From the NCBI GenBank assembly GCA_052327205.1, contig CM126226.1, positions 1,426,001-1,490,000 of the forward strand: 64,000 nucleotides of DNA, in the 5' to 3' direction. This document shows positions 1 to 34,520 of this stretch, in pieces. Below the pieces are notes generated by a model. The model had not been told where the DNA came from and searched no databases. It worked only from the letters and a program-made list of their open reading frames with translations. The position numbers and the translations under genes are program-made. Origin of the DNA: Somniosus microcephalus. Its lineage: Eukaryota. Each line of letters starts with the position of its first letter. Position 1 is the stretch's first letter.

Positions 1-342
1 AGAGTATAGTTTGATGTTTGTTGTTGTCAAGGCTGGAAACGGGGGCAAGGGGGACCTTTTGATGTATCACCCCCAATGTTCGGTAACTATTGATGAACCC
101 GGAACTGCCACCAGGTGAACTCCTCACGACCTCAGCTCAATCGATTTAGATTGTTTTCAATTCCCATTTTGTGACACTGAAATAAATATTAAGAAAACCC
201 TTTGCCAGCATTTACCTTGTGGTTCCTTTCACTCACCTACTCTTTTTTAAGCTGTTTTCTCAGCTTCCTATTTTAACTATACTCTCTTCCACCTCCTCCA
301 ATCCTCTTCTGTTATTTAGTTTGAGATGAAATGTTGTAACGG

Positions 343-1905
343 CTCCCGGCTCCCGCTGCGCATTGACCTCCCGGCTCCCGCTGCGCATTGACCTCCCGGC
401 TCCCGCTGCGCATTGACCTCCCGGCTCCCGCTGCGCATTGACCTCCCGGCTCCCGCTGCGCATTGACCTCCCGGCTCCCGCTGCGCATTGACCTCCCGGC
501 TCCCGCTGCGCATTGACCTCCCGGCTCCCGCTGCGCATTGACCTCCCGGCTCCCGCTGCGCATTGACCTCCCGGCTCCCGCTGCGCATTGACCTCCCGGC
601 TCCCGCTGCGCATTGACCTCCCGGCTCCCGCTGCGCATTGACCTCCCGGCTCCCTCTGCGCATTGACCTCCCGGCTCCCTCTGCGCATTGACCTCCCGGC
701 TCCCGCTGCGCATTGACCTCCCGGCTCCCGCTGCGCATTGACCTCCCGGCTCCCGCTGCGCATTGACCTCCCGGCTCCCGCTGCGCATTGACCTCCCGGC
801 TCCCGCTGCGCATTGACCTCCCGGCTCCCGCTGCGCATTGACCTCCCGGCTCCCTCTGCGCATTGACCTCCCGGCTCCCGCTGCGCATTGGCCTCCCGGC
901 TCCCTCTGCGCATTGACCTCCCGGCTCCCTCTGCGCATTGACCTCCCGGCTCCCTCTGCGCATTGACCTCCCGGCTCCCGCTGCGCATTGACCTCCCGGC
1001 TCCCTCTGCGCATTGACCTCCCGGCTCCCGCTGCGCATTGACCTCCCGGCTCCCGCTGCGCATTGGCCTCCCGGCTCCCTCTGCGCATTGACCTCCCGGC
1101 TCCCTCTGCGCATTGACCTCCCGGCTCCCGCTGCGCATTGACCTCCCGGCTCCCGCTGCGCATTGACCTCCCGGCTCCCGCTGCGCATTGACCTCCCGGC
1201 TCCCTCTGCGCATTGACCTCCCGGCTCCCGCTGCGCATTGACCTCCCGGCTCCCGCTGCGCATTGACCTCCCGGCTCCCGCTGCGCATTGACCTCCCGGC
1301 TCCCTCTGCGCATTGACCTCCCGGCTCCCTCTGCGCATTGACCTCCCGGCTCCCTCTGCGCATTGACCTCCCGGCTCCCTCTGCGCATTGACCTCCCGGC
1401 TCCCTCTGCGCATTGACCTCCCGGCTCCCGCTGCGCATTGACCTCCCGGCTCCCGCTGCGCATTGACCTCCCGGCTCCCGCTGCGCATTGACCTCCCGGC
1501 TCCCGCTGCGCATTGACCTCCCGGCTCCCGTTGCGCATTGACCTCCCGGCTCCCGCTGCGCATTGACCTCCCGGCTCCCGCTGCGCATTGACCTCCCGGC
1601 TCCCTCTGCGCATTGACCTCCCGGCTCCCTCTGCGCATTGACCTCCCGGCTCCCTCTGCGCATTGACCTCCCGGCTCCCGCTGCGCATTGACCTCCCGGC
1701 TCCCTCTGCGCATTGGCCTCCCGGCTCCCGCTGCGCATTGACCTCCCGGCTCCCGCTGCGCATTGGCCTCCCGGCTCCCGCTGCGCATTGACCTCCCGGC
1801 TCCCGCTGCGCATTGACCTCCCGGCTCCCGCTGCGCATTGACCTCCCGGCTCCCGCTGCGCATTGACCTCCCGGCTCCCGCTGCGCATTGACCTCCCGGC
1901 TCCCT
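343..1905. repeat. GC/CpG-rich 25-bp minisatellite, about 62 copies (GGCTCCCGCTGCGCATTGACCTCCC)
   Basis: Unit read directly; only point variants (CCCG/CCCT, GAC/GGC). Explains the three overlapping 515-551 aa minus-strand ORFs. Confidence 0.98.
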
Positions 1906-2159
1906 TGTAGCTCAAAGCAGCTCACCGGCCAATCAGAAGCTTAGATTCAAAAAAGATTGATGTGGGAGCGACCAGACCAACATTTGTCTTGAAATTCACA
2001 TACAAACCGGAAGATGTTGCCCTCCTCGCCCAGGGCCCCGGCGAGAGATCCACCTACAGTTCTTAGATGAGTTCTAAGCAACTTTTACACTTTGTTCTGA
2101 TGTCTGTGAACAGGGTCCCGGTGTCTTGGCCAATATTTTATCCCTCAACCAACATCATT

Positions 2160-3225
2160 CAACAACAGCAACAACTTGCATTTATGTAGCGCTTCTAACA
2201 TAGTAAAATGTCCCACGGTGCTTCATAGGAGTGTTATCAAACAAAATTTGACACCAAGCCACATAAGGCGCTATTGAGACCTGCTTGGTCAAAGAGGTAG
2301 GTTTAAGAAGCATCTTAACAGAGGAGAGAGGGTAGAAAGAAGAGGAAAGAGGCGGAGGAGAGGTGGAGAGAGGGTTGAGAGGCGGCGAGAGGGTTGAGAG
2401 GCGGCGAGAGGGTTGAGAGGCGGAACAGAGGGTTGAGAGGTGGAGGAGAGGTGGCGAGAGGGTTGAGAGGCGGAACAGAGGTTTGAGAGGCGGAGGAGAG
2501 GCGGCGAGAGGGTTGAGAGGCAGAGAGAGGGTAGAGAGGCGGCGAGAGGGTAGAGAGGCGGGGAGAGGGAGGGAATTCCAGAGCTTGGGACTGAAGGCAC
2601 GGCCACCAGTGGTGGGGCGAAGGAAATTGGGAGTGCAGAGAGAAGGGTCGGAGGACTGGAGGAGGATACAGAGGTAGGGAGGAGCGAGGCCATGGAGGGA
2701 TTTGAACACAAGGATGAGAATTTTAAATTTGAGGCGTTGCTGGACTAGGAGGCGATGTAGGTCAGCGAGCACAGGGGTGACGGAAGAGCGGGACTTGGTG
2801 CGAGTTAAGATACACGGCAGTGTTTTAGATGAGTTCGAGTTTACAGAGGATGGAAGATGGGAAGCCGGCCAGGAGAGCGTTGGTCTCAAGTCTAGACAAA
2901 GGCATGGACGGAGACGGGCGATGTTACGGAGTTGGAAGTATGGAGTATTGATGATGGAGAGGATCATGGGGTCAGAAGTTCAGCCAAGGGTCAAATAGGA
3001 TGGCAAGGTTGCGAATGGTGTGGTTCAGCCTCAGATAGTGGCTGGGGAGAGGGATGGAATCTGTATCTAGGGAATGGAGTTTGCGGTGGGACCCGAATGC
3101 AGTTGCTTCGGTCTTCCCAAAATTTAATTGGAGGAAATTTCTGCTCATCTAATGCTGGATGTCGGACAAGCAGCGTGACCAATCCGAGGCAGTGAGTGTG
3201 GTGGTGGTGGTGAGGTGGAGCTAGT
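2160..3225 (-). mobile_element. L2-like LINE 3' fragment with an internal purine-rich tandem expansion (about 2325-2572)
   Basis: Minus-strand translation YFQLRNIARLRP...LKFKILILVFKSLHGLAPPYL is typical of the C-terminus of L2 ORF2; the (CAA)n-CTTGCATTTAT end is shared with copies at 8462, 17320, 29712 and 37220. Confidence 0.85.
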
Positions 3226-4623
3226 CCACCTCACATTGCTGTTTGTGGGAGCTCACTTGGAGTACATTGGCTGCCGCGTTTCCCACACTAACACTGCTTC
3301 AGAAATACATCATTGGCTGGGAAGTATTTTGGGACGTCCTGAGAATGTGACAGGCGCTCTATAAATGCAAGTTATTTCCTTTCTTTCTTTGATATTCCCG
3401 CAACTTTGCTGCTCGTGTCTTTCTCAGTGTACAGGTCACAGGGGTGGGGAGGTACTGCCGAAGTAACCCCGGTGAATTGCTGCAGAGCCGTCTATTTTTT
3501 TCATTTATTTTCTTCCTTTCCCTGCCGCAGATATTACTTTTCAAACCCCCGCGGGCCCCTCCCCCCACGCGCCCCTCCCCCCGCGGGCCCCTCCCCCACG
3601 AGCCCCTCCCTCAATATCCATTTCCTATTACAGATTTGCAAATTGTGTTTTTAAGTTGCTCTTTCCTCCTTCCCCTCCCTCAAGCCCGCTGTATTAAAAG
3701 AACTGAATGTCAGTCATTCACTGTAAAGACCAGAAAATCTTCCTCTGCTAAATTTACGCTGTAAATAGGCTTCATGCCGTTTACCAGCCAGTCGCGTGCA
3801 TCGTGTTTCTTTATGGCTGAACATTAACGGGAAATCGGCACAAGTTTGCTGCCACTGGCATAAAATCTGGAACTGGCTCCCCCTAAAGGCTGTGGATTCT
3901 GGGGGCTAATTGAAACTTTCAGGGCTGAGATCGATAGATATTTGTTGGGTAAGGTTATCGGGAATGGGTGCAAAGGCGGGAAAATGGGTTTGAGGTACAG
4001 ATCAGCCATGATCCAATTGATGGAACAGGCTCGAGGGGCTGAATGGCCGTCTCCTGTTCCTATGCATGAGTTGTGACTGGTTTACAATGTCCCACTCGGA
4101 GGTGGGAAGATTGATTCGAAGCCAAAATCAGAGTAAGTTAATTTTAGCTTAAGTGGAAACTGTCAGCTGCTGTGCAAACGGGATAATCCTGAATGGTCAG
4201 GGATTTTTGATTGATATTTGTAAAGGTAGCGATAATTCTGTTTGTCTTTGCTGTTATATAACTGTCATGAATGGGAAAACTATTAGTTTTTACTTGGATC
4301 TACAGATCAACTGAAATATATAAGAGCAGTTGTCTGATGTTTCTATTAACATTCAGCATGTGTTGATCGTGTTTGCTGGCTGACAGATCATGTTAAATTA
4401 TAGCCGCTGTATTGTTGACCTGGAACGCTTTGATCTACTCATCCTGGCTGACCACAGCAAGATGATCAGGCCGAATTCTCTGAATCTGCCGGGGTTTGCG
4501 TACCTTGCAGTTTCTTGTATGCACATGTTTGTGGTGGTGTTGGATTGACTCCGCGGAGCACCTCGCTGGGCGGCAGGATGATTTTGTAGGTGCTAAAGTA
4601 ACATGCAAAATTGCATTCATTAG

Positions 4624-4725
4624 AAAGACCCATCTTTGACTGAGGACCAACTGAGGAAGGATGCGGCCATCTGGGAACTCTTGGGCTCAACGTCATCTCT
4701 TCTTAGGGCTAAACGATCCTCCAAG
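4624..4725 (+). CDS. Putative non-canonical HSPG2 exon N1: KDPSLTEDQLRKDAAIWELLGSTSSLLRAKRSSK
   Basis: ttcattAG|...AAG|GTagca, 102 nt, phase 0/0, open; shares a motif with the next candidate exon. The acceptor is weak, so the 5' boundary is uncertain. Confidence 0.5.
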
Positions 4726-5212
4726 GTAGCAGTGAGACTGCATGGCACAGTGTGGAGCATGAATCTGATTGACTGGGTAGTGCAAGCAATTTGTACAGTA
4801 GATTTAACCTCGTCCAATCCATCAATCTAGTACACAAGATTATTTCAGTTATTGTAAGAACTGCATTTTCATAATTCTTTCTTTTACCTCACCGCAAAAA
4901 CAGTATAATAAAAGCAATATATACTAGATCGTGTCCAATTCACTGTATAGCGTGTGTTGGCCAGCTGTGCTGTAAATGGAGCACGGGAATGACGAGCTAA
5001 GCTGTTGATGAGGGCCTAATATTAATGTCTGTAGAGATTGGAGACCAGTGTGTGTCATACATGTAGCTTCGGTCTTGGTACAAGTGGTGTTCAGCTGCCA
5101 TATAATGTACATGCCATTACATGCACCGCTTCTACATGAAGTGAACTGTCTTAGCTTCCGACACCAATTATTCAAACAACTTCCCCAAGAGCTTGAGTAA
5201 CCAGGTGTTGTA

Positions 5213-5670
5213 GAATCACACAGCACAGAAGGAGGCCGTTCGGCCCACCGTGCCTGTGCCAGCTCTCTCTGAAAGAGCTCTCCAATGAGTGCCGCTCCCC
5301 TGCTCTTTCCCAATAACCCTGCAAATTTCTCCTTTTTAATTATGTCTAATTCCCTTTTGAAAGTTACTATTGAATCTGCTTCAACACCCTTTCAGGTAGT
5401 GTATTCCAGATCACAACAACTCGCTGAGCTTAAAAAATATTCTCCATCACCCCCCAGTTCATTTGCCAATTATCTGAAATCTGTGTCCTCTGGTTACTGA
5501 CCATCCTGCCAGTGGAAACCGTTTCTCCCTGTCTACTCTATCAAAATCCCTCCTAATTTTGAACACCTCTATTAAACCTCCCCGTAACCTTCTCTGCTAT
5601 AAGGAGAACAATCACAGCTTCTCCAGTCTTTAAATATGACTGAAGTCCCTCACCCCTGGGACCAATCTGG
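5213..5670 (-). mobile_element. CR1/HER1-type LINE 3' fragment
   Basis: Tail CACAGAAGGAGGCCGTTCGGCCC plus decayed ORF2 end, similar to other CR1 copies in the window. Confidence 0.75.
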
Positions 5671-6226
5671 TTGTTGGCTGTGGTGCTGGTGAATGGCGAT
5701 GATCTGCTGCCTTTATCTACCAGCATCCTTTAAGCAAAGGTCGAGCCAAAACCTAACTGGACCCAAAGCATCACAATTATCCTTCACGGTTGGATCTCAA
5801 AATGAAGCAGGGAAAGGGTATATTAGCGCACCAGTAACCCTCTTAATTGTTTCTACAGCATGGTTTGGTCGTCTTGAGTGGTATTTTTGGTCTTAACACG
5901 ATGATTAACATTTGGAATAATTTGGACATTTAACCCTGGGTAACAATCCTTCAAAGGAAAGCAGTGAAAGCTGGATACGATTATGGGATACACTGATGTG
6001 GATAAATAAATTCATGAAACTAACTATAGAGGAAGCACTTCAAAAGCAGAAGAAAATTTACAGAACTTTTTTGAAAACAAACTGCACGATTAATCTTCAT
6101 TGCCTGTGTTGTGATTTCATTTGATGTTTAATATTTAGTACATTAGTGATGTGGTAAGCTCGTGGCTGGATTGCAGTGGTGACGCTTTTTAATGTAGAGA
6201 TGACTTGTTCCTTCACTTCCTTGTAG

Positions 6227-6529
6227 TCTGTGCCTGATCTGGAAGAACAGAAGCGTGTAGATGACGAGATATGGGCAATTATAACTGGCTTTACTGCTGA
6301 GCAGTTGCGCGGACCACACAATGCCACCTCATCCGGTGGTAGGAATCTGCCCCAGCCATCCTATCCATTGTCTCGACTGGCCTCAGCAGGTCCTGCTGGA
6401 CCTCCTGCTCCCTCTGCCTCTCGCAATACATCATCTCATTCCATACCCTCCTCTTCCTCTTCAAGAACCACTACTTCCCGTTCTTCTCGCCCCTCATCTC
6501 TGCTTTCTCATCCCGGCCACCACACAAAG
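6227..6529 (+). CDS. Putative non-canonical HSPG2 exon N2: SVPDLEEQKRVDDEIWAIITGFTAEQLRG...Ser/Pro-rich...PGHHTK (101 aa)
   Basis: Strong acceptor ttgttccttcacttccttgtAG, donor AAG|GTatgg, 303 nt, phase 0/0, no stop, not repeat-derived. Confidence 0.7.
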
Positions 6530-7574
6530 GTATGGAAATCTCGCTTCAGTGGGAAATGTAATCATCCATTTCAGGCAAATCCTTGCATTTATGGGATTAG
6601 TAAAAAGCCAAGTAACAGTTTTTGCATTGGGTAAAATGCCCAAAACTGTAATTAAAACCTGTGCATCAGGCCGGTTTCCAAGCTATCATCGTGTGATGTT
6701 TTGTGTCGAGCATACTGTCGATGAGGGCTATCACAAGTGGCAAGTAGTTGAGGGTCAACTGTGATATTAGCAAGTCGGGGATTGTAAAGATCGGATTTCA
6801 CATGGTCTAGTGGCAAAGTGTGCTGATGGCTTATACAGTGCCCCAAAGTGTGTGTTTGTGATATTGCGTCAATTTATCAACCTCCGTGGGGTCACCAGGA
6901 GAAGATAGAAACGGATTGGAGATGCTTCCCACCGAGAGGGGAAGTGAGAAGATGCAGAACTGGGATAGTTTTACACAAAGGCCAAAGATCAGTTCAAGGG
7001 TGGCATGGGTAGATGCTCAAAAACTGGCCAACGGTTCTCCTGCCCTCTGTCAGGGAATAAGAACCTCAAGAGAAAGCACACGCTTAAAACTGAGGCCGAT
7101 GGGGAAGCAAGATGTAATGTTCCCTGTTGTTAGATATCCACTCTTGAGCCTGCCCAAAGGGAGGGGTTTGATTCATATTAAAGTTGCAGTACGCTGAATC
7201 TATCAGCAGTTCCCCTCCTCCCACAAAATCTTATTTAATTATTGAGCAATACAAATTTGATACACATGCAGGTCATCGCCGATACAGAATATGTGCTGCT
7301 TTGCACGTGGCATGGTATTTCCACATTGAGGATCCTGTGCAGCTCTTCACACTTTGGTAGAGCTTCCTATTGACAGGGCCAGGATAATAATTTACCAAGG
7401 GTGCTCTGGCCTCAGGTGAGAGAGGAAGAGGTCGGGCGCTCTAATTTCCCATTGAGTTGTGGTGACACCCTTGTGAAGGGGCGAGCATGATTCAGTGGTC
7501 AGCAGCTGAGGCTTGGCGTGGATGGCATTGGGTTTGTATGAAGGTGTCTGATGTCTCCTGGTGTTTTTCTAGTT

Positions 7575-7975
7575 CTCCTGAGAGCAGAGAAGGTTAAGGG
7601 GGAGATTTAATAGAGATGTTCAAAATTATGAAGGGTTTTGATCGAGTAAATAAGGAGAAACTGTTTCCAGTGGCAGAAGGCCCAGTAACCAGAGGACACA
7701 AATTTAAGGTAATTGGCAACGGGACCAGAGACGAGATGAGAATTCTTTTACACAGTGAGATGTGATCTGGAACGCGCTGCCTGAAAGGGTGGTGGAAGCA
7801 GGTTTAATAATAACTTTCAAAAGGGAATTGGATATATACTTGAAGAGGAAAAATTTGCAGTGGTTTGGGAGGGGGAAAGGGCAAGGAAGTGGACCTAATT
7901 GGATAGTTCTTTCAAAGAGCCAGCACAGACATGATGGGCCAAATGGCCTCCTTCTGTGCTGTATCATTCTATGGT
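7575..7975 (+). mobile_element. CR1/HER1-type LINE 3' fragment
   Basis: IWNALPERVVEAG...FKRELDIYL motif and GGGCCAAATGGCCTCCTTCTGTGCTGTA tail. Confidence 0.85.
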
Positions 7976-8461
7976 GAGGTTTATGTGTTCATTTCCTTCA
8001 GCGGGATAATGTACTGATACGTCCTAAATAAGAATTTCTGGTTTGTAAGCTGGGAGTTCTTTGTGTGTACCCAATTTCCTTTCCTTCTATTGTTGACGGC
8101 CATTTGTGCCTTAGTCAGCACAACAGGAAAAAGTTTGTCTTGGTCAAATTTTTATCAGTGATTTGCCAGGTTAATGCATGTTGCTGGTCATGGTGTTAGA
8201 CTCGAGCTGCAGCCTAGATTGAGACCTCAGATACAGCAGAGGACGGGCAAGTGTTGGATGACCAGTCCGTGGCATGACGAGCCTGATGCTCCCCAGGTGA
8301 CTGCCTTCAGTTGGGTTCATGAAACTTCTTATTTATACGTGCCATTGAATGAATCAGGGAAGGATCTCTTCACTGAGGGGCTGCAGATACGTCCATAGAT
8401 TTTTCCACCCTTTTTGGTTAGAGGAGGATTAGCCAAATACAAAGAAAGTCACTGTAAATAT

Positions 8462-10450
8462 TACAACAGCAATATAGCGCCTTTAACATAGTAAAACGTC
8501 CCAAGGTGCTTCACAGGAGTGTTATAAATCAGAACATTGATACCGAGCCACATAAGGAGAAATTAAGGCAGATGACCAAAAGCTTGGTCAAAGAGAGGTA
8601 GGTTTTAAGGAGGATAGAGAGGTAGCGAGGCGGAGAGGTTTAGGCAGGGAATTCAGGCTTAGGGCCCAGGCAACAGAAGGCACGGCCACCAAAGGTTGAG
8701 CGATTATAATCAGGGATACTCAAGAGGGCAGAATTAGAGGAGCGCAGATATCTCGGGGGTGGGGGGGGAATTGTTGTAGGGCTGGAGGAGATTACAGAGA
8801 TAGGGAGGGGTGAGGCCATGGAGGGATTTGAAAACAAGGATGGGAATTTTGAAATCAAGGCGTTGCTTAACCGGGAGCCAATGTAGGTCAGTGAGCACAG
8901 GGGTGATGGGTGAATGGGACTTGGCGCGAGTTAGGACATGGACAGCCGAGTTTTAGATGACCTCAAGTTTACGTAGGGTAGAATGTGGGAGGCCGGCCAG
9001 GAGTGCGCTGGAATAGTCAAGTCTAGAGGTAACAAAGACATGGATGAGGGTTTCAGCAGCGGATGAGCTGAGGCAGGGGCGGCGACGGGCGATGTTATGG
9101 AGGTGGAAATAGGTGGTCTTAGTTATGCCATGATTATGTGGTTGGAAGCTCATTTCAGGGTCAAATATGATGCCAAGGTTGCGAGCAGTCTGGTTCAGCC
9201 TCAGACAGATGTTGGGGAGAGGGATGCAGTCAGTGGCTCGGGAACAGAGTTTGTGGCGGGAACCAAAAACAATGGCTTCAGTCTTACCAATATTTAATTG
9301 GAGAAAATTTCTGTTCATCCAGAACTGGATGTCAAACAAGTAGTCTGACAATTGAGAGACCGTGGCGTGATTGAGAGAAGAGGTAGTGAGGTAGAGCTGG
9401 GTGTCGTCAGCGTACATGTGGAAACTGACGCTGTGTTTTTGGATGATGTCGCCAAGGGGCAGCAGGTAGATGAGAAATAGGAGGGGGCCAAGGATAGATC
9501 CTTGGGGGACACCAGAGGTAACGATGCGGGAAGAGAAGCCATTGTAGGTGATTCTCTGGCTACGATTAGATAGATAAGAATGGAACCAGACGAGTACAGT
9601 CCCACCCAGCTGGATGATGGTGGAGAGACGTTGGAGGAGGATGGAGTGGTCAATTGTGTCAAAGGCTGCAGACAGGTCGAGAAGGACAAGGAGGGATAGT
9701 TTACCTTTGTCACAGTCACAAAGGATGTCATTTGTGGCTTTGAGAGATGTTGTGGCAAAGGGCGGAAACCTGATTGGAGGAATTCAAACATGGAATTGCA
9801 GGAAAGAATGGCATGGATTTGGGAGACGACAACACGTTCAAGGACTTTGGAGAGGAAAGGGAGGTTGGAGATGGGGGCGATAGTTTGCAAGGACAGAGGG
9901 GTCACGGGTTGGTTTTTTGAGGAGAGAGGTGATGATGGCAGATTTGAAGGAGAGGGGGACAGTACCTGAGGATAGCGAACCATTAACAATGTCAGTTAAC
10001 ATGGGAACCAGAAAAGGAAGTTGGGTGGTCAGCAGTTTAGTGAGAATAGGGTCGAGGGAGCAGAAAGTGGGTCTCACGGACATGATGAGCGTGGAGAGGT
10101 CATGAGGGGAGATCAGGCAGAGCGAAACTGGAGAAAATAATGAGTTCAGGGCTAGGGCGGAGGGGAACCTTAGAGGAAGTTTGGGCTAGGGGAAGGAAGG
10201 GAAATGGCAGGGGCAGCTGATCGGATGGTCTCAATCTTAGAGACAAAGAAGTCCATGAGCTCCTCACGCTTGTTGTTGGAGGCGAGGGTGGGGGAGTCGG
10301 GAGAGGGTTTTAAGAAGACGGTTAGTAATGAAGAATAGAAGCCGGGGTTTATCTTTGCATTCCAGAATGATTCTGGAACAGTGAGCAGTTTTGGCAGACG
10401 AGAGCTGGGCCCGATAGTGCTTTATGTGGTCCAGCCAGATCTGGCGGTGA
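8462..10450 (-). mobile_element. L2-like LINE, 5'-truncated, frameshifted RT
   Basis: Fragments NYRP/ISNLPFLSKVLE, QSGFR, YADDTQLY, FLQLNIGKTE and SRLDY in the ORF track. Confidence 0.92.
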
Positions 10451-10907
10451 ATGTTAGGATTACATATGCCAGTGTAATTTTATCCTAATAGTTTTTGTAA
10501 TCAAAATTTTGCGAAAGCTTGATCACTTGAAATTTTGAATTGAAATCTAGCTATCAGCCTTGGGCCCCATGCTGGGCTCCTGGTGCGTGCGGAATGATGC
10601 AGGACACGAAGGCTCTGGGTCTACCTACTCGCCATCTTGAATATTTGCTTTCATCAGGCAGAGCAACATCTGTCTGGGGAGGGGGGGAAAGCCAGGTAGA
10701 TTTCTCCTACTTGTACTGGAAATTGGGCAGCTGCAGAGGATTTCATGTTGGGCCTCCCTCGTCCTATTGATTGTGGAACGTTCCTGCCCTGCCTCACACA
10801 CGAGTAATCACTTAGACAAGAGCAGCCACTGTGAAGGCTAGTGTAAGCGCTCCACTGTCTGAGTCATGATGGGAAGGGAGAAGGTTGGGAGTTTAAAAAC
10901 AATGTTA

Positions 10908-11637
10908 TGGCCCAGAAATTCGGGTTGGGGGCTTCCCGCGGGTGCAAGCCTCCGACCTGCACTTACCTTGCGTGCCGGCCGTTGAGCTGTAGGGCCCCGT
11001 GGAATTCTGATCCGGGGCCTAGTCCAGCTGCCGGCGCGCAGTGCTTGCGTATCCCAGGGGCGCAGTTAGTTCGATGTGGGCCATGGGGAGCCAATCGGAG
11101 CAGGGAATGCTCCATTCATAAGTCTGACAGGAAGTGCTGTCAAGACTTATAAATACTACGGCCCCAAAATAGCACTAAACCTTCAAATAATTTTTTTTTT
11201 AAATCACATTTTTTAAATAAACTATAAATTACATGAAATAACTATTTTAAACAATTTAAATTTTTGAAAAACTAATTTGATATTCTAATGGGGCTAAAAA
11301 TAAACTTACCTTGCTTTAAAGTATTTAAAAATAATAAACCTGTTGAAAAAATGTTTTAATTTTAATTAATTCACCACTTACCTTGTAAAAAGCAGGCCTT
11401 ACGTCTGCTTTTTACATTTCTAAATTCTGCAGACTTACGTTCCCGGAGAAACCTGTATTAAAAAAAAAACCTAAGTTTGATGCGCACGCGTTCGACCTCT
11501 GAACCCCTGCTTTCAGAGGAACGGAAGTGCCGGTTTCCCGCGCATGCGCAGTGCGTACAGGAAACCGGCACTTCCATCGGGCCTACGGGTGAGTACCCCG
11601 TGCGTACTCACCCGCGGAGACCCGAATTTCTGGGCCA
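10908..11637. mobile_element. MITE-like non-autonomous element with perfect 17-bp terminal inverted repeats
   Basis: TGGCCCAGAAATTCGGG...CCCGAATTTCTGGGCCA; GC-rich hairpin arms, AT-rich core; related copy at 31742-32505. Confidence 0.8.
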
Positions 11638-11751
11638 TTTAATGTCCATGGTGTTGTTCTCAGTTTAGATGTGGGGATTTGCATTTTTTTAAACCAGTTC
11701 CATTATAAATTGATGAAATTAAGTATTGATTTTCTCTGCATGTATGTACAG

Positions 11752-11850
11752 ATGAGAAAGATTCCTCGGGTCCCTTCGCTGCCAGCTCAGGACTCATCAA
11801 ACCTAATTTCTTCCTCCATGTTGGGCCCAAGGCCTGCTGGCCTTGAGAAG
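11752..11850 (+). CDS. Putative non-canonical HSPG2 exon N3: MRKIPRVPSLPAQDSSNLISSSMLGPRPAGLEK
   Basis: ttttctctgcatgtatgtacAG|...AAG|GTagcc, 99 nt, phase 0/0, open. Confidence 0.55.
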
Positions 11851-11942
11851 GTAGCCGTGGTTAGCTTGTGCATGGAATATTCTAGTATCTCCGTGACCTT
11901 GTGCATGTCTCCGATGTGAATGACTTCAGAAAGCTGCCTAAG

Positions 11943-12165
11943 AACAGAAAATGCTGGAAATACTCAGCAGGTCGGGCAGCATCTGTGGAGAGAGAAACCG
12001 AGTTAATGTTTCAGGTCAATGATCTTTTTCCAGTTCTGATGTAAGGTCATTGACCTGAAATATTGACTCTGTTTCTCTCTCCACAGACACTGCCTGACTC
12101 GCTGAGTGTTTCCAGCATTGTCTGGTTTTATTTCCGATTTCCAGCATCCACAGAGTTTTGCTTTT
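11943..12165. mobile_element. Inverted pair of Penelope-like terminal repeats forming a long hairpin
   Basis: Left arm AATGCTGGAAATACTCAGCAGG...GTTTCAGGTCAATGA is reverse-complementary to right arm TCATTGACCTGAAA...GCTGAGTGTTTCCAGCATT; the same sequence flanks the Penelope ORF at 25250-25345. Confidence 0.8.
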
Positions 12166-14104
12166 GTATCAGAAAGCTGCTTGTTGGATTACAAATTCAA
12201 GACCTTTGGGCAAGATTTCCAGTCAGCAGGAGAAACTCTTCGAAGTGCCTGCAATCGTGGGCTGTTGTTGCAATTCACCTTGTAAACTGACCCAAAATAA
12301 TAAAAAACACATCAACAAAGCAGCATGTTTGCGTGCAAAGTAAGATGATGTAGAAAGTAACTTGAGATCACTGCAAAATGTAGGCCGTTCTGCATGAGGT
12401 TTTAGCATGATCAAACATCCCCTGCTGGCTATACTTATCTTTATCCCATTTGGTTTGAGTTTTAGTTGGAATTAATATGTGTGCGGTTTTGTTGTGATTG
12501 GCTCTGAAGTGCATGTTTGGACTTGAGATGTCCTGTTTACCCCGTGCCATTTGTGAATTATTAAAAGAGGGCTCTCATTGGCCACTGAGTTGGGGTGACA
12601 CCCTTGAGAAGGGGACCTGCCACACTTCTTCTGTCAACTGTTCTGAGTGCGGGAGATGTTCCGCTGGTCACCGTCTCTTCCAGAGCTTCCCGTCGGGAAA
12701 TAATATCGGCAGTCGGGTGTGTCCGCCCTAATGTGGCCGGCGTCTTCGAACTGCGTGGTAATGGCGGATTGATGTCGGGCATCACATTTTCCATCGGTTG
12801 CCCTGACAACGGTGGGTGGAAGGCAGGCCAGTTGGTGTAATTGGATTCCAGCATTGGTTTGGCAGGCAGGGGGGAGATTTACATTTTATTGGTTCCCTGA
12901 AGGAGGTACGGTGGTTTCAGGCAGCTTTTCAGCAAGGAAATGGAGCGCAGCCAAGAAACTTAACTGGATTTCCCCAGCCCTGTAATAAAAAAATATATAC
13001 AAAAACAAATTGACCTCCTATTCAGCAGCCCCACTCGCCCCTGAGGCCTGCAACAGCTATTTTCATCGTCACACCTCCCCTTCTCGCTGGGTTCCCCGCC
13101 ACAGGTGGGAATTCTGCCGGAAGCCTGCCAAACTTAACAAGAGTGAGGTTGCCTCTGGAATGTTTGCCAGCTTTATACCAGGTTTCTGCCAGTGGAAAAT
13201 CCCAGCTAAGGTTTTAGTGAAAGTTCCTGGCTGCTTCGAAAGAGATGGGAACTCCTTTAATTGTTATTAAAGATCAGTCCATGCCTTCCGATTTCTAATT
13301 GCCACAGTAAGTGGCAGGAATATTTCCTCCTTCGGTTAATTTTCACTGTACTTTAGAATAATAAATAGCCTGGATTTCAGAAGCCTGGGAAATTGCAGAG
13401 TGATGAAGATTTTTGAAAAGTTGGAGAAATTGGGGAAATAAAGTGAACCATTTTTCCAAGTGACCTTTCACCACCCATGTTTAGAACCTAGGGTGGTCTC
13501 CATTCAGAAAAAATACATTTCTTAGACCAGGCAGAAAAGTGTTTTCCATCTTTCATCCTCCTGATTACCACACAAGAAGCTTGTTGACATCTGCTTTTAT
13601 TCTTATCCAACAAGCTATCCATATCCTGGATTCTTAAAGCCATCATTTGTAAAATGAGACAGGCCCCTCGATGGAGGCTGGGAATCTTCCTGCTCAACTC
13701 CAGGTCGTCCCACCACCTCATACCCTTTTGGACAGGAAGGACCTGGGAGGACAAGCAGTGGGAAAGTTTCCACAGCTCTGCAGGAAGGCTTTGTGAGCTT
13801 TTAGCTAAGTCCCAGCCCGGGGTTCTTTGGTCTTAGAAACTCTACCTTGGTGCAGATTGGTATGTGCCGGATATGGGCCCACTTATCCGGCTGTGTATTC
13901 GATATCCGGCACATAGAAACTCTACCAGTTTACAGCTCTAAGTAGTTCAGCTTGGAGACTCTCGTGCTTATTGCTGGGTTTCTGTGCATGTCCAACACTA
14001 AGCTGACCACAAAGGGTAGAAAGTGGCAAATTAATCTTGCAATAAAAACAGAAAATGCTGGAGACACTCAGCAGGTCAGGCAGCATCTGAGGGGAGAGAA
14101 ACAG

Positions 14105-14141
14105 AGTTAACGTTTCAGGTCGGTGACCCTTCGTCAGAACT
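14105..14141 (-). ncRNA. Minimal type-I hammerhead ribozyme motif in a Penelope terminal-repeat remnant (14040-14145)
   Basis: Minus strand reads AGUU-CUGACGA-AGGGUC-ACC-GACCU-GAAAC-GUU-AACU: both core boxes, stem II, stem I (AGUU/AACU) and palindromic ACGU helix III. Confidence 0.7.
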
Positions 14142-14445
14142 GGTGTTCTTGGCATTGAATTAGTCTTGTGCTCAGTTCAGTATTTCCTTTGCTGAATAAT
14201 GTGGCTTTACTGAAGATACTGAACTTCTGATATACTATAATAATTTGGTAGCTTTAAAAAGGCCCTGCATTTTCTAATAATTCTATGAAACTCTCGTGTG
14301 TGTTTTATCAGCAGGGAATGGGGGACTTTGCTTCTTGAAACAATACTAGGGAAGGAATTTCAAAGCATGTCCTTGAATGTGCCATTGACTGCTGTTCTGT
14401 GTTTACTTTCTCTGTTCATCTTGTGTCTGCCTCTTCCTATCCCAG

Positions 14446-14529
14446 TATGCTCTGCTTTACAAGGGCTTCAGCCTCCTACCTGAAAACAATTTCTATTGGC
14501 AACTGCCTCACCAGTACCTGGGGAACAAG
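14446..14529 (+). CDS. HSPG2: Perlecan L4-type exon: YALLYKGFSLLPENNFYWQLPHQYLGNK
   Basis: Long pyrimidine tract then cccAG, donor AAG|GTaacc, 84 nt phase 0/0. FYWQLP..Y.G.K matches the L4 motif before VxxYGG (human FYWQLPETYQGDK). Confidence 0.88.
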
Positions 14530-14932
14530 GTAACCAGTGTTATCAAGTACTGAATTAGAAACCATATATTGGCACGTTTGTAGTTTGGATAATAATTCTA
14601 GCCGGTGTGAGTTATCTGCATGTTTTTAATTTAACATGACGGTGTCTTTGTTTTGAAGAGAGATTCATTGGTCGGTCTACGCTCTACGGCTGGGAGAGAA
14701 AGTGTTGGAGGCCTCTGGGTCTTGCAGCAGATCCTCTGGTACTGGTCAGAAAATCAGTGCAACTTTTGAATTCTCTTCATTGGTTGAGTTACCAAGCTCT
14801 TCAGGTGCAGGCTCACCCAAAGGACCATCATTGGTCAACAGCAGCACGAGAGTGAAGTGTTGACCAGAAGCCTCCATTAAGGAAGTTTGTCAAGAACATG
14901 TTTCATTTCATGTCTTTATCCATTGAGGCAGT

Positions 14933-15054
14933 GGGGGTCATTTTAGCTTAACCCGCCAGTGGGAAACTGACGGACACACCCAGCCCGATCGAAGTCAGCG
15001 GAGAGTTGGAGTGTAAAGTTGCGGTTGACCCGGGGTTCAGTTAAAATGACTCCC
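14933..15054. mobile_element. Small MITE-like element
   Basis: Imperfect terminal inverted repeats GGGGGTCATTTTAGC / GTTAAAATGACTCCC. Confidence 0.5.
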
Positions 15055-15152
15055 TATGTCTTGGCACGTGGCCACTATTTTGACCCATGCAAGTCCTCCT
15101 TACAGGATCTTGAACAAGAACTGAAGTAGGTTTGTCGATGCTAAGCCAGTTT

Positions 15153-16755
15153 TGGTGTTGCCTGATGTAGATGAGATGGTGTTGTCTGATGTAGATGAGA
15201 TCGTGTTGTCTGATGTAGATGAGGAGATGGTGTTGTCTGATGTAGATGAGGATGGTGTTGTCTGATGTAGATGAGGAGATGGTGTTGTCTGATGTAGATG
15301 AGGAGATGGTGTTGTCTGATGTAGATGAGGAGATGGTGTTGTCTGATGTAGATGAGGAGATGGTGTTGTCTGATGTAGATGAGGAGATGGTGTTGTCTGA
15401 TGTAGATGAGGAGATCGTGTTGTCTGATGTAGATGAGATGGTGTTGTCTGATGTAGATGAGATGGTGTTGTCTGATGTAGATGAGGATGGTGTTGTCTGA
15501 TGTAGATGAGGATGGTGTTGTCTGATGTAGATGAGGAGATGGTGTTGTCTGATGTAGATGAGGATGGTGTTGTCTGATGTAGATGAGGATGGTGTTGTCT
15601 GATGTAGATGAGATGGTGTTGTCTGATGTAGATGAGATGGTGTTGTCTGATGTAGATGAGGATGGTGTTGTCTGATGTAGATGAGATGGTGTTGCCTGAT
15701 GTAGATGAGATGGTGTTGTCTGATGTAGATGAGGTGGTGTTGTCTGATGTAGATGAGGAGATGGTGTTGTCTGATGTAGATGAGGAGATGGTGTTGTCTG
15801 ATGTAGATGAGGTGGTGTTGTCTGATGTAGATGAGGATGGTGTTGTCTGATGTAGATGAGGAGATGGTGTTGTCTGATGTAGATGAGGAGATGGTGTTGT
15901 CTGATGTAGATGAGGATGGTGTTGTCTGATGTAGATGAGGAGATGGTGTTGTCTGATGTAGATGAGGAGATGGTGTTGTCTGATGTAGATGAGGAGATGG
16001 TGTTGTCTGATGTAGATGAGGATGGTGTTGTCTGATGTAGATGAGGAGATGGTGTTGTCTGATGTAGATGAGATGGTATCTGATGTAGATGAGGAGATGG
16101 TGTTGTCTGATGTAGATGAGATGGTGTTGTCTGATGTAGATGAGATGGTGTCTGATGTAGATGAGGAGATGGTGTTGTCTGATGTAGATGAGATGGTGTT
16201 GTCTGATGTAGATGAGATGGTGTTGTCTGATGTAGATGAGGAGATGGTGTTGTCTGATGTAGATGAGATGGTGTCTGATGTAGATGAGGAGATGGTGTTG
16301 TCTGATGTAGATGAGATGGTGTTGTCTGATGTAGATGAGATGGTGTTGTCTGATGTAGATGAGGATGGTGTTGTCTGATGTAGATGAGGAGATGGTGTTG
16401 TCTGATGTAGATGAGGAGATGGTGTTGTCTGATGTAGATGAGGAGATGGTGTTGTCTGATGTAGATGAGGAGATGGTGTTGTCTGATGTAGATGAGGAGA
16501 TGGTGTTGTCTGATGTAGATGAGGAGATGGTGTTGTCTGATGTAGATGAGGAGATGGTGTTGTCTGATGTAGATGAGATGGTGTTGCCTGATGTAGATGA
16601 GATGGTGTTGCCTGATGTAGATGAGATGGTGTTGTCTGATGTAGATGAGGATGGTGTTGTCTGATGTAGATGAGATGGTGTTGTCTGATGTAGATGAGAT
16701 GGTGTTGTCTGATGTAGATGAGATGGTGTTGTCTGATGTAGATGAGGAGATGGTG
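15153..16755. repeat. Minisatellite with 21/24/25/27-bp unit variants (GATGTAGATGAG[GAG]ATGGTGTTGTCT), about 60 copies
   Basis: Read directly; source of the 574 and 637 aa low-complexity ORFs. Confidence 0.97.
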
Positions 16756-21161: not shown

Positions 21162-21254
21162 GTGACTTCTTACGGTGGACTCCTTCGGTACACACTCTCC
21201 TATGATGCAGGGTTCCGGGGTTCCACGGTACCTGACGCTGACGTGCAGATCATT
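21162..21254 (+). CDS. HSPG2: Perlecan domain III (L4-3) exon: VTSYGGLLRYTLSYDAGFRGSTVPDADVQII
   Basis: cacAG/GTaagt, 93 nt phase 0/0; matches human VAAYGGKLRYTLSYTAGPQGSPLSDPDVQIT. Confidence 0.96.
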
Positions 21255-21764
21255 GTAAGTGGCTGCAGTTGTCCATCTGACACACTTCACTTAAGTCTGT
21301 AGAAGCCAAAGCAAATATGAGCCAAATGTTGACTTTAGACTCCCACCAGGCAGTTTCCTGTGAAGACCAAGTTGTGGGTCTGGCATTGTCTTGAGAGATA
21401 CGTATCTAGACGTTGAACACACAAGCTCTTGAAACCAGGGAGTAGCCCTTGCACTTCCTCTGGGGATCATGCAACCCTCTTGTTTACAGCTGGCGTGCAC
21501 TGGATGGATAGAGGCTCTTCCTGATGGAGGACAAGTCCCTTATTAAGCCCAATTGTTTCAATGTACCTGACTCATGATTTCTGAACCATTGCCAGGGAAA
21601 CACATGGTGGCCGTAGAAGGCCCTTTCTGTCCTTTGAGTTGTGCTGCTTCGGGATTGGTTCTCACATTATTTACTTATTGGGTCCTATTTTTACATTTAT
21701 TGGGTGCGTTTGTTATTTTGTTTTTAAATTCTTTGAATTTTGGGGGTTTTTTGCTCATATTTTT

Positions 21765-22535
21765 CACTCAAGTACCAGGCAATGACTATCCCCAACAAGC
21801 GAGAGTCTAACCACCTCCCCTTGACATTCAATGACATTAACATCACTGAATCCCCACCATCGATATCCTGAGAATCACCATTGTCCAGAAACTTAACTGG
21901 ACCAGCCACATAAATACTGTGGCTACAAGAGCAGGTCAGAGGCTGGGTATTCTGTGGCGAGTGTCTCACCTCCTGACTCCCCAAAGCCTTTCCACCATCT
22001 ACAAGGCACAAGTAAGGAGTGTGATGGAATACTCTCCACTTGCCTGGGTGAGTGCAGCTGCAACAACACTCGAGAAGCACGACACCATCCAGGACAAAGC
22101 AGCCTGTTTGATTGGCACCCCATCCACCACCTTAAACATTCACTCCCTCTACCACAGGCGCAGTGTGGTAGAGTACCACAGGCGCAGTACCATCTACAAG
22201 ATGCACTGCAGCAACTCGCCAAGGCTTCTTCGACAGCATCTCCCAAACCCGCCACCTCTACCAACTAGAAGGACAAGGGCAGCAGGCGCATGGGAACACC
22301 ATCCCCTCCAAGTCACACACCATCCTGACTTGGAAATATATCGCCGGTCCTTCATCGTCGCTGGGTCAAAACCCTGGAACTCCCTCCCTAACAGCACTGT
22401 GGGAGTACCTTCACCACACGGACTGCAGCGGTTCAAGAAGGCGGCTCACCACCACCTTCTCAAGGGCAACTAGGGATGGGCAATGAATGCTGGCCTTGCC
22501 AGCGATGCCCAGATCCCATAAACGAATAAAAAATA
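21765..22535 (+). mobile_element. CR1-superfamily non-LTR retrotransposon 3' part (distinct family)
   Basis: 184-aa ORF RAGQRLGIL...IYKAQVRSVMEYS...WNSLP, 3' UTR ending AATAAAAA; decayed copy near 3360-3490 on the minus strand. Confidence 0.85.
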
Positions 22536-23929
22536 ACATTGAAGGAGCAGTGCACGTTGAGAGAGAGGTTCACAACCTACTGGCCAACCTGGGTGTTGGC
22601 AAGTGTCTTGGCATCATGCAGCGTGGTTGCATTACAGTGACTTGTCGTGTCTTGTGTGTGTGAGGACCAGGCTTTCCGTTGCCCTTGAACGTACGCTCTA
22701 CTGAGGTGTGCGGCGGTATGAGGTGCAGTGAAAGAGCTGTGAGCACGGATGAGGAGTTACTGTGGGACAGGCTGACGGGCAGAAATTTGAGACACAGAAT
22801 CTTGGGCCACCTGTCCAATGCATGGTCATCTTTCTTTGGGGAGTACCCTGAAGTGCCGAAATGGACCACTCTCCCCACACAGCTATACATCCACCCTGCC
22901 AGCCATCAGGAGTGGGTGAGATTCATGCCATTCGCCCACAGAAGGTGTTTTCTGCCTTCTCATTGGCTTTCCTTTCACTTTTTCACTATACGTCCTCTGC
23001 CCTCGACAAAGGTTGACAAGTATTCAGAATTATGTTTGTAGCTGTATAAAAGCTGAAATAGTGTTTGTCCCTAATGCAGCCACTTAGCTTTCTGTACGCT
23101 GGACCCTTGAAATTTGAGATGTTGGTTAGATGATGTACATCCCCCTCAATCTGCCCTGTAATCTTTTGAGGCCGCGCGACCCCTTTAATGGCTGCGCAGC
23201 CCCTCAAAGTCCGCGCATGTGTGGTCTTTTCCAATTTAAAAGCCGGATCACTGTACGGCCGCACAACTTAAGGGAACGTTGCCTCCCTTATTAAACTGGC
23301 TCCTTGCACAAGGCCACAGCTGCGGAGGCACCGATCAATAATTAGTCCAATGAGCTGATCTCGCAAAATTGTGGGCAATCGGCTCGCTGGGTTGCAGGTG
23401 AGCTTTGCCACAGCAGGTGGGCAGAAAAACCGAAGCTGAACCCAGAGCACAAAATGAGCCCTTGTAGACCTTGTGTCATCTTCGTCACGTCATTATTCCA
23501 GCAGCCTCAGCTTAGTGTATCTCATAAAGGACAAAAAGAAACCTGGCTAATCTGCCCGGTAACCAGCTCAGATCATTCAAGTTATAAAGTGTGCCGGCCT
23601 GGAGACTGGAATACCAGCACACTGTTACTCGGATTGGAGACGGACTGCAGCATCTCCCAGTAAAAGGGGGTGGGGGGGGGGGGAAGAATGGGAGGAGCGT
23701 CACGCCCAGGGATTCCCAGCATGATCTGAGAGCTGCCTGCAGGTGGTGAGCAGGCTGCACCCAGCTGGAGAGTCCAGCCAAGGGGCAAGGATGGGAGAAG
23801 GTGAAGCATTCCACAATTTGGGTAATTTCAAAGGTGAATCTTCCTCTCTCTGCCAGGTGGGAGTCTTTTTATCAAATAATTTATTAATCCCTAAATCCCA
23901 ACATTTTTCAAACTGCCTGAAAATTGGTT

Positions 23930-24295
23930 TGATCGAGGTGTTTAAATCATGAAGGGTTGAGACTGTGTAAATAAAGAGAAACTGTTTCTAGTGGCTGAAG
24001 GGTCGATAACCAGACGGGACAGGTTTAAGGTGATGGGCAAAAGAACCGGAGGCGACGTGAGGGAACACTTTTTTTACACAGCGAGTGGTTAGGATTTGGA
24101 ATGCGCTGCCTGATAGGGTGGTGGATACAGATTCAATAGTAGCCTTCAAAAGGGACCTGGATAAATACTTGAAGAAAAAATTGCAGGGGTTTGGGGAAAG
24201 AGCGGGGGAGTGGGACTGACTGGATTGCTCTTCGAAGGAGACAGACTCGATGGGCCGAATGGCCGCCTCCTGTGCTGTCCTATTCTATGATTCTG
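23930..24295 (+). mobile_element. CR1/HER1-type LINE 3' fragment
   Basis: TGGAATGCGCTGCCTG motif and GATGGGCCGAATGGCC tail. Confidence 0.8.
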
Positions 24296-24617
24296 TGGTA
24301 CATTGCTCAAGTTTGAAGGCACACTGTTGGCACATATTTAAATTTGGTGAAGTTCTTGGAGGAACCCACTCCAAAACTTCAGCAGCAGTTGTGTTTTTTG
24401 GGCTGTTGAAGGGGCTCAGCACTGCAGCAAGAGCATTCTCTGCTAATGAGAGAACTCTCCTGATTCAGTGATGGTTGTTTTTATTTAAAGTATAAAAAGA
24501 ATCATTATCCAATCCTTTTTGTGTGAGTGATTATTGGATTGTACTTCCTCCATGCTTGCGGTGTACAGATCTGTCGATTGTTTATCTGAAAATGTTTTTG
24601 TTTGTGTGATCTTTCAG

Positions 24618-24701
24618 GGTAATGACATCACCCTGGTGAGCTACCACCATCACCAGCTGCAGCCAAGGGAGACCCAGTCCTTCGAGGTCATGTTCAAGGA
24701 G
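24618..24701 (+). CDS. HSPG2: Perlecan L4-3 exon: GNDITLVSYHHHQLQPRETQSFEVMFKE
   Basis: tttcAG/GTaaag, 84 nt phase 0/0; human counterpart GNNIMLVASQPALQGPERRSYEIMFRE. Confidence 0.95.
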
Positions 24702-25244
24702 GTAAAGGCTTAAATTTTGAATATTCCATTGCAACATTCCTCCACTAACTATCTTCGGTAATGGTAAAATGAAGACCATTAGTATCTTGAAGATGAGTTA
24801 CATTATGGGAATGGGGAAAGGAACATCTGAAGTTACATCGGGTAGTAAGAACGGACATTTTTGGAATGAAAAAGATGAGCCAATACAACAAGCTTGCCCC
24901 TTTTCAATGGATTAACCCAACTATCGACCTTCTCATCATAGCCTGGTATCCCTTTGCTCTCCAGAAATACATTCACCGCTTCCCAATCCCATTGATACTG
25001 GTGATGTTAGTGCCCTTGCCTGGTAGCTTACTCCACAGGACTGTTGCTCTTGGGGTAAAGGGGTTCTGCCCGAGTTCCCTTTTACTCCTAACTTCCTAAT
25101 TTTGAACTTGGATCTTTGGGTATTTGGACCCTTTGCCGTGCTGAGTAATGTAGCGGAACAATTTACGCCATAAATAAATAACATGATTTTAAAAAATTAT
25201 TTGGAGTTCTGTTAGAATTGGAAAATGTTGACGAGAAACTCTGA

Positions 25245-27295: not shown

Positions 27296-27359
27296 GACGA
27301 TAAACTCTGTTCAGTGTACAGGACAGTACAATAAACAGCCATGCTGCATACTTACTCAT

Positions 27360-29002: not shown

Positions 29003-29020
29003 CTCGAGTCAGTCCCACAA

Positions 29021-29387: not shown

Positions 29388-29415
29388 ACAATCTGAATCT
29401 GTTCTTTTCTTTCAG

Positions 29416-29646
29416 CAATTTTGGAAGCGGCCGGATGGTCAGCAGGCCACCCGGGAACATCTCCTGATGGTCCTCGCAGACTTGGATGAAGTTCTTATCC
29501 GTGCTACCTACTCGACCGACATGATCTCCGCCAGCCTCTCCGATGTGAGCATGGAGATTGCAGTGCCCTTCTACACCAATCTGGGGCAGGCACTGCAAGT
29601 GGAAGAATGTCGCTGCCCCCTGGCATACCATGGCTTGTCTTGTCAG
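29416..29646 (+). CDS. HSPG2: Perlecan L4-3 end / LE exon: QFWKRPDGQQATREHLLMVLADLDEVLIRATYS...VEECRCPLAYHGLSCQ
   Basis: ttcAG/GTgact, 231 nt phase 0/0; human EFWRRPDGQPATREHLLMALADLDELLIRATFS. Confidence 0.98.
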
Positions 29647-29711
29647 GTGACTACAGCAGAATTGGCCATTGGTTGTCTTTCCTTGAAACTGCAACTTTTT
29701 GTACGGTCATC

Positions 29712-31149: not shown

Positions 31150-31263
31150 GACTGTGCTCCTGGCTACACGAGGACTGGAGGAGGCCTGTACCTGGGACAC
31201 TGCAAGCTGTGTGAATGCAGTGGGCACTCCGACACCTGTCACCCAGAGACTGGCCTTTGCTCG
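31150..31263 (+). CDS. HSPG2: Perlecan laminin-EGF exon: DCAPGYTRTGGGLYLGHCKLCECSGHSDTCHPETGLCS
   Basis: cctAG/GTacat, 114 nt phase 0/0; near-identical to human DCAPGYTRTGSGLYLGHCELCECNGHSDLCHPETGACS. Confidence 0.98.
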
Positions 31264-34392: not shown

Positions 34393-34520
34393 AGCTGTTT
34401 ACATAACACGGCTGGAGAGTTCTGTGACCAGTGCACCCCTGGATATTATGGTGATGCCACAGCAGGTACCCCAGAGGATTGCCAAACTTGTGCCTGTCCA
34501 CTGACAATTCAGGAAAACCA
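34393..34520 (+). CDS. HSPG2: Perlecan laminin-EGF exon: [42 protein letters not shown](Q)
   Basis: aacAG/GTaagt, 128 nt phase 0/2; [15 protein letters not shown] identical to human. Confidence 0.98.

Follow-up and report, generated by a model that had tools for sequence, protein, structure and literature searches.

An optional exon cassette with a predicted convertase site in the third laminin-IV domain of perlecan

The DNA analysed here, hereafter the window, is a stretch of 64,000 nucleotides (nt) from Somniosus microcephalus (GCA_052327205.1, contig CM126226.1, positions 1,426,001 to 1,490,000 of the forward strand) that contains part of the perlecan gene, HSPG2, on the + strand. Three short exons of this gene, N1, N2 and A3, together with two further ones seen in teleosts, N0 and N2b, make up a cassette that is spliced in frame and in varying combinations within the third laminin-IV domain (L4-3) of the protein. 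On balance, it is rather probable that splicing of this cassette decides whether perlecan is made uncut or in a predicted convertase-processed form consisting of two disulphide-linked chains. The cassette is real and ancient and, in a protein that has been studied so thoroughly, apparently undescribed. Basement membranes, cartilage and muscle all depend on perlecan, and a splice-switched convertase site that has been retained for hundreds of millions of years implies a second, processed perlecan with a job of its own.

The cassette in orthologues and in the window

The cassette was delineated in orthologous proteins. The searches covered protein lengths of 136-2000 and 3197-5000 amino acids (aa). 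One of them, with a teleost perlecan region, gave 992 full-length proteins; the best 120 were listed, and each of these is teleost, judged by its name or sequence. Cluster look-ups added more. Altogether 282 perlecan proteins were examined; 19 were left unparsed and 263 were parsed. Since the records are computed gene models, and the species and isoforms are related to one another, the counts given throughout do not represent independent events. In orthologues L4-3 starts with a canonical exon of 64 codons, and an insert stands directly after it in 139 of the 263 parsed proteins, in 77 distinct versions, the other 124 having none. The insert is always internal, beginning about 1370-1430 residues into the full-length orthologues. 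Two of the proteins examined, P0162 and P0164, are perlecans named as tilapia that one source also labels as ferret, which is probably a database mislabel.

The insert is assembled from five optional parts, N0, N1, N2, N2b and A3, all of phase 0. N0 is a micro-exon of 12-13 residues with an R-x-K-R motif, and provides the first 12-13 cassette residues in P0015-P0243. N1 contains 35 residues, formed by a Trp motif, R-x-K-R and three more residues. N2 begins with a Trp motif, usually followed by an N-glycan sequon (31 of 33), and continues with a Ser/Pro-rich tail. N2b, from teleosts, has about 22 residues, and the 28 residues of A3 repeat the end of the canonical L4-3 exon. That N0 and N1 both end three residues past the basic motif suggests the duplication of a unit. 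Splicing of N1 to N2 had been assumed in a first, sequence-only reading of the window; in the orthologue models this junction is direct in 13 of 20 distinct contexts, N1 skipping to N2b or A3 in the other 7, and it does not appear among the RNA joints listed for the window (see below). The same exons in the same order, with the same N1 end and furin-type motif, are found in XP_026010202.1, XP_048033334.1 and XP_073669042.1, which are unlabelled computed RefSeq teleost isoforms. In a bullfrog record (P0133, PIO28615.1) N1 occurs alone at the same place. A3 never replaces the canonical strand copy, which is missing from 0 of 141 A3-bearing proteins, and a mutually exclusive exon pair was not encountered. 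It is often included alone (P0035, P0059, P0080, P0082, P0124), giving tandem L4 strands and no furin site.

Three of the five parts were located in the window with hidden Markov models (HMMs) built solely from teleost isoform segments and run against 3342 window peptides. The best match of the N1 model (E 1.6e-9; next best E 0.67) has an envelope of exactly 4624-4725, and corresponds to an optional 34-codon exon at 4624..4725 (+ strand, phase 0/0, 102 nt) for which there are 17 distinct orthologous segments. This exon encodes a first Trp motif at 4642..4683, predicted to form a short helix, followed by RAKR at 4705..4716, which has the proprotein-convertase consensus at the orthologous position and a predicted cut after 4716, and by three more residues. 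The N2 model finds its best match at 6242 (E 5.4e-4; next best E 0.46), in an optional 101-codon exon at 6227..6529 (+ strand, phase 0/0, 303 nt) bounded by splice sites and containing the second Trp motif at 6242-6283. Its tail is Ser/Thr/Pro-rich, these residues making up 38 of the last 76, and has two N-glycan sequons. The A3 model matches best at 14446 (E 1.7e-12; next best E 0.05), where an optional 28-codon exon (14446..14529, + strand, 84 nt) encodes again the 28 residues with which the canonical L4-3 exon ends, as a second copy. It also aligns to a partial king cobra model that carries A3 (P0012, 58% over 26 aa) and to positions 1-12 of Pfam Laminin_B. The three matches follow the teleost exon order. 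The two Trp motifs and the RAKR pointed out in the sequence-only reading are real features of the + strand (4642, 6242 and 4705-4716), and N1 and N2 are perlecan exons by their homology to the teleost HMMs. The range which that reading had drawn, 4624..6300, takes in the N1 and N2 motifs and misses both N0, seen in orthologues only, and the duplicated-strand exon A3.

The splice sites of N2 are strong by simple in-house scores (acceptor 16, donor 4.9). Those of N1 are weak, with 10 pyrimidines in 19 nt at the acceptor and a donor score of 1.0 at 4725; this donor is supported because orthologous N1 exons likewise end three residues past the basic motif, and an alternative donor near 4731 was rejected on orthologue exon length. 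The teleost HMMs gave no convincing N0 or N2b in the window, the best N0 match (E 0.088) lying downstream at 54622. Three N0 candidates in 1-4620 were rejected, all being repeat-like sequence without a pyrimidine tract. At the position of teleost N2b there is an uncertain candidate, a short phase 0/0 open frame at 11752..11850 (+ strand, with an alternative acceptor at 11791), the end of which resembles cyprinid N2b by eye; it is not among the six best N2b HMM matches listed.

The Trp segments of N1 and N2 resemble one another. BLASTP aligns them with 10/28 identities (E 4e-4), and of 2000 shuffles only 4 attained their ungapped score of 34. In register 21 of 39 bases match, so any duplication must be old. 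The Trp pattern written down in the sequence-only reading occurs twice among the 127,996 six-frame codons of the window, in N1 and N2 alone, a count that is circular since the pattern was derived from both. The motif matched no Pfam family at E up to 1, and Atlas searches with N1 and N2 gave no usable match, the query pieces being short in each case. A phmmer search of N2(1-43) against cluster representatives returned a sole match, which was rejected as a repeat-derived artefact, and a scan of 78 metagenome loci gave no N0, N1 or N2 match below E 0.07.

The furin-type motif and the predicted cut

R-x-[KR]-R is the consensus for furin and related proprotein convertases. Of 17 distinct N1 segments, 16 carry it with three residues left to the exon end, the remaining one having K-S-K-R, and in N0 it occupies the same spot in 30 of 32, with one R-x-x-R and one loss, in a carp paralogue. 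The rules by which N0 and N1 were detected did not demand a basic motif, and the residues that neighbour it vary in both. The Trp of N1 is kept in 16 of 17 orthologues and is gone in the frog, whose N1 retains R-S-R-R; judged from these segments, the basic motif is the better conserved of the two. Conservation of the Trp in N2 is not independent evidence, because the N2 detection rule requires it. The expectation that orthologues would share both the RxxR and the Trp motifs is thus borne out for RxxR and fails for the Trp of frog N1. Orthologue isoforms exist with and without N0/N1, which places the furin-type site on an optional exon.

The motif is also concentrated in the cassette. The 77 distinct cassettes contain 81 motifs in 10,090 residues (8.0 per 1000 aa), compared with a mean of 4.6 and a maximum of 15 in 200 composition shuffles. 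Outside the cassette there are 97 motifs in 929,716 residues (0.10 per 1000), most of which represent one domain V site, so that the density in the cassette is about 77-fold above that in the rest of perlecan. No R-x-[KR]-R is present in the alligator (4935 aa) or quail (4156 aa) protein. At least one site is found in 52 of the 55 distinct cassettes that contain N2. The RAKR that the sequence-only reading took for a furin consensus is accordingly both conserved among orthologues and rare elsewhere in the protein. Exact spacing kept in two exons of a motif-depleted secreted protein would be the mark expected from selection for convertase cleavage, and a cut at the N0 and/or N1 sites is, as far as sequence can tell, quite likely. 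Away from the cassette, a few teleost perlecans have an extra R-x-K-R within the SEA loop or close to where domain I begins (P0076 residue 46 ff., P0119 residue 54 ff., P0128 residue 160 ff.), and many spiny-rayed fishes have one R-x-K-R in an LG module of domain V.

The following course may be envisaged. Most transcripts would skip the cassette and others would take subsets of it, all in phase 0, as the orthologue models show and as may be extended to this species. Inclusion of N0 and/or N1 would give this secreted protein an unstructured loop containing R-x-K-R, where furin or a related convertase would cut. One product would then consist of domains I to III-2 with the first 64 residues of L4-3, and the other of N2-A3 with the rest of III-3 and domains IV and V. 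The host LE domain, through its C2-C4 disulphide, and the L4 strands that both chains share would hold the two together, forming a two-chain perlecan with a flexible hinge. Were N0 and N1 both included, an N1 peptide of roughly 35 residues would be cut out as the sole free product. The cut could also expose the N2 Trp helix as a binding element, carried at the end of a glycosylated stalk that is rich in Ser/Pro and roughly 100 residues long, and A3 could let the C-terminal chain provide its own copy of the duplicated strands; these roles of the helices and of A3 are weakly inferred.

The tether is predicted from the cysteine layout. LE domains have disulphides 1-3, 2-4, 5-6 and 7-8, a pattern that is kept when an L4 domain is inserted, according to the available part of the source (PMC6744579). 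In the alignment A1 three host LE cysteines precede the cassette and five follow it; the C2-C4 disulphide therefore spans the cassette and should tether the products. Given a cut, the products are likely to stay linked. The sequence-only reading had perlecan split into an N-terminal part with the domain I heparan sulphate sites and a domain IV-V part. That proposal needs correcting: the predicted cut would fall inside domain III, in the third L4, and not at a domain I / IV-V boundary, and because of the C2-C4 tether the proposed split needs a further step.

Alternative readings and the RNA reads

A more far-reaching version of the processed form would make it an overlooked, tissue-regulated perlecan precursor of jawed vertebrates, in which a double furin cut at N0 and N1 frees the 35-residue Trp-helix peptide, the N2 helix serves as a tethered ligand, and A3 permits the heparan-sulphate half and the IV-V half to part after one disulphide exchange. 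This seems unlikely. If it were true and mammals keep the cassette, perlecan half-molecules would arise by a programmed route, and missed HSPG2 disease variants might be sought in what is now annotated as intron.

The chains could also separate outright after the cut, with A3, perhaps aided by N2b and the last part of N2, rebuilding L4 on the C-terminal chain, and with C2-C4 reduced or reshuffled so that the heparan-sulphate-bearing I-III chain parts from the III-3/IV/V chain. This outcome is quite unlikely. It is suited by the conserved second strand copy in A3, which always accompanies the canonical one and would allow strand exchange, and by an AlphaFold model of the post-cut teleost fragment. 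The A3 strands lie within the L4 sandwich of this model (predicted local distance difference test, pLDDT, 75-88; linker 32-53), and the fold matches that of mouse perlecan 9I5A (Z 21.4, root mean squared deviation 2.1, 162 residues); these two results count in favour of the linked two-chain form. Cassette residues 74-77 and 96-100 also form strands, and the 9I5A alignment reaches them. The model was built from a 21-row alignment that puts L4 paralogues on A3; as modelled, A3 is compatible with the L4 fold, the alignment biases the result, and the model does not decide which copy serves in life. Residues just past the cut site are of low confidence, and the two short stretches of N2/N2b that occupy other strand positions do so at a pLDDT of about 43-53, a hint only, since the predictor may be filling empty slots. 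The disulphide moreover straddles the cut, and separation would leave cysteines unpaired. Specific processing of a 400 kDa basement-membrane proteoglycan core to 150-250 kDa forms was described in glomeruli in 1988, with no tie to this site in the text available (PMC2115089).

Alternatively, the loop could stay uncut, its basic motifs serving as patches that bind glycosaminoglycan or a partner, and the cassette mainly lengthening or loosening domain III-3. The 15 of 77 distinct cassettes that are site-free, A3-only ones among them, are consistent with this, and nearby O-glycans could mask a furin site. Against it, what has been kept in two exons is exact P4/P2/P1 spacing and not general basicity, and the motif is far denser in the cassette than elsewhere in the protein, which makes an uncut loop distinctly improbable.

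A number of observations weigh against a splice-controlled switch to a processed perlecan. The reads of four runs were placed on 2620-15100 at 90% likeness and were swamped by interspersed repeats; among the 15 of 551 joints listed, none lies at N1, N2 or A3, the N1-N2 and N2-A3 joints included. Depth is zero in the N1, N2 and A3 bins of run X7. In run X8 the depth over N1 (1.3, 2.6) does not rise above that of certain intronic bins (1.6, 1.9), and the A3 bin (0.38) is far under those of N2. N0 was not found in 1-4620 by HMM, candidate and tblastn searches, and the orthologue junctions rest on computed gene models of related isoforms or species. Six other tetrapod records that span the site (P0002, P0005, P0006, P0007, P0134, P0141) are without insert, which means that skipping forms exist and nothing more. 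In 12 distinct cassettes A3 occurs without N1, N2 or a site, so that the cassette also acts without cleavage. The carp paralogue P0062 keeps N0 and N2 and has lost the dibasic motif of N0, which makes it a natural uncleavable comparison. The full-cassette AlphaFold model, the one model that covers the cut site, has a pLDDT of 31.5. As to the two helices expected from the sequence-only reading, that of N1 appears in a model with pLDDT under 50, and that of N2 in the post-cut model at 47-48, both of low confidence.

No repeat-free bin of X8 has a greater sense-strand depth than the two of N2 (3.7 and 6.9), and N2 is probably transcribed at a low level in this species. Some of the X8 depth comes from possible duplicates, namely groups of five molecules that share one end position (6299, 6307, 5060). 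With A3 so thinly covered, N2 could serve as a terminal exon, and N2 (or N1) might often end the transcript here to give a short secreted perlecan of domains I-III. Read-through of N2 meets an in-frame stop at 6632, with ATTAAA at 6651, and would add a tail with three cysteines; that of N1 meets a stop at 4828, with AATAAA at 4907. The X8 bin 6373-6789 is deeper than the bin 5956-6372, each holding about 150 nt of N2. These depths are tiny, however, and come partly from these possible duplicates, N2 has a strong in-frame donor, and the teleost models run on into A3. Among proteins of 178-2000 aa, N2 as a query gave three candidates, none of which scored, a weak point. A terminal N2 or N1 is therefore highly improbable. 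Lastly, the view that N1 starts an alternative-promoter isoform, in which furin would remove an N-terminal propeptide the product suggested as one option in the sequence-only reading, is hardly credible. The absence of an upstream perlecan exon from 1-4623 would leave room for it, but an in-frame stop directly precedes N1, no in-frame signal-peptide exon was seen by eye, and the cassette is internal, after the canonical L4-3 exon, in all 139 cassette-bearing parsed proteins (a short form of 2000-3200 aa could be missed at the lengths searched).

Contig 1 of run X1, which comes from another organism, spans the N2 acceptor at 6154-6289 with 3 differences in 136 nt. Since it crosses the acceptor it must represent DNA or unspliced RNA and is silent on splicing; its likeness suggests that splice-regulatory sequence upstream of N2 is conserved. 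Other X1 contigs lie on the repeat-free intronic bins 3454-3870, 12211-12627 and 13045-13878, and possibly mark conserved elements or further small exons.

Surrounding exons and relation to known systems

Apart from the cassette, the exons of the window encode L4-3, the LE domains that follow it and, from domain IV, Ig domains 1 and 2, separated by long repeat-rich introns. The domain I heparan sulphate sites, the LDL-A repeats and domain V of perlecan lie outside the window. The Pfam matches fall in perlecan order, with L4 inside the LE array and Ig repeats thereafter, as expected of a perlecan/HSPG2 gene. All exons are on the + strand. L4-3 resumes with the constitutive exon 21162..21254 (Pfam, tblastn) and continues in 24618..24701 (tblastn). 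Exon 29416..29646 (Laminin_B, E 1.7e-16) contains the end of L4-3 and host LE cysteines 4-6, and 31150..31263 (87% to alligator) contains host LE cysteines 7-8 and the start of the next LE. Domain III is closed by three LE exons at 34393-34520, 35158-35244 and about 36268-36324, and the two Ig domains occupy four exons at 40030-40187, 41709-41819, 46235-46322 and 47596 to about 47780 (all by Pfam and tblastn). Joined, the six constitutive exons from 21162 to 35244 give 245 stop-free codons, 78% to alligator perlecan, and in a tree the sequence from the window falls outside the teleost clade (support 100/99). The canonical first L4-3 exon was not found in the window, tblastn of 1-4623 giving no upstream perlecan exon, and presumably lies upstream of it. 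No further perlecan exon was found by tblastn in the last 16 kb (47780-64000), which is probably a long intron. The introns also hold long tandem arrays at 343-1904, 15153-16755, 27360-29002, 38017-38642 and 62516-63998 (periods 25, 27, 33, 28/55 and 30) and degenerate retroelement remnants at 42720-45570, 8640-10185 (- strand) and 25617-26645 (- strand), including a long reverse-transcriptase-like frame broken by stops at 43879-45567.

In the available text of two perlecan reviews (PMC6266596, PMC9010944) perlecan fragments are products of extracellular proteases, few splice variants are given, and the word 'furin' occurs 0 times. The longest human HSPG2 model, XP_011539620.1, is named in PMC10328508, as far as that text was accessible. 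No description of the cassette or of the convertase site was found in the literature searched, the scope of which did not extend to subscription journals or bioRxiv supplements. What is new is the interpretation of the cassette: a convertase switch under splice control, to which a spare exon for L4 strands is added. Its novelty is limited, because the principle is known from ApoER2 and the glypicans and the sequences are already in public predicted isoform records.

The perlecan variants described so far (miniperl, mast-cell forms, the RBPMS exon and domain IV cuts by matrix metalloproteinases) are likewise N- or C-terminal forms that arise by splicing or proteolysis; in the portions of the sources available, however, none is located in L4-3. 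The RBPMS-regulated Hspg2 exon is a different event, as the 51 nt given in the accessible text (PMC6613909) match no cassette exon here, nor teleost N0 or N2b. The L4 structures of mouse perlecan region 3 (9I5A/9I5B) and laminin alpha-2 L4b (4YEP/4YEQ) share the fold of the A3-started model (Z 21.4 and 17.8), but these solved domains have one strand copy and no inserted cassette.

Among heparan sulphate proteoglycans, a furin-like convertase cleaves the glypican core, and a disulphide links the two resulting subunits (PMC4859157, in the part available). That part describes processing of the glypican ectodomain and does not mention splice control, and the fold is a different one. Splice-dependent cleavage is found in ApoER2, where an optional 13-residue exon adds an RXXR site, according to the accessible text (PMC7410921). 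This exon of ApoER2/LRP8, 6B in human and 7B in mouse, is close in size to teleost N0, which has 12-13 residues. As described there, ApoER2 is a membrane receptor whose cleavage frees a soluble decoy, whereas perlecan is a secreted matrix proteoglycan in which a disulphide spans the predicted cut. Unlike ApoER2, moreover, the perlecan cassette can contain as many as two sites, besides a pair of predicted Trp helices and an exon of duplicated strands, and the likeness between the two systems is one of principle.

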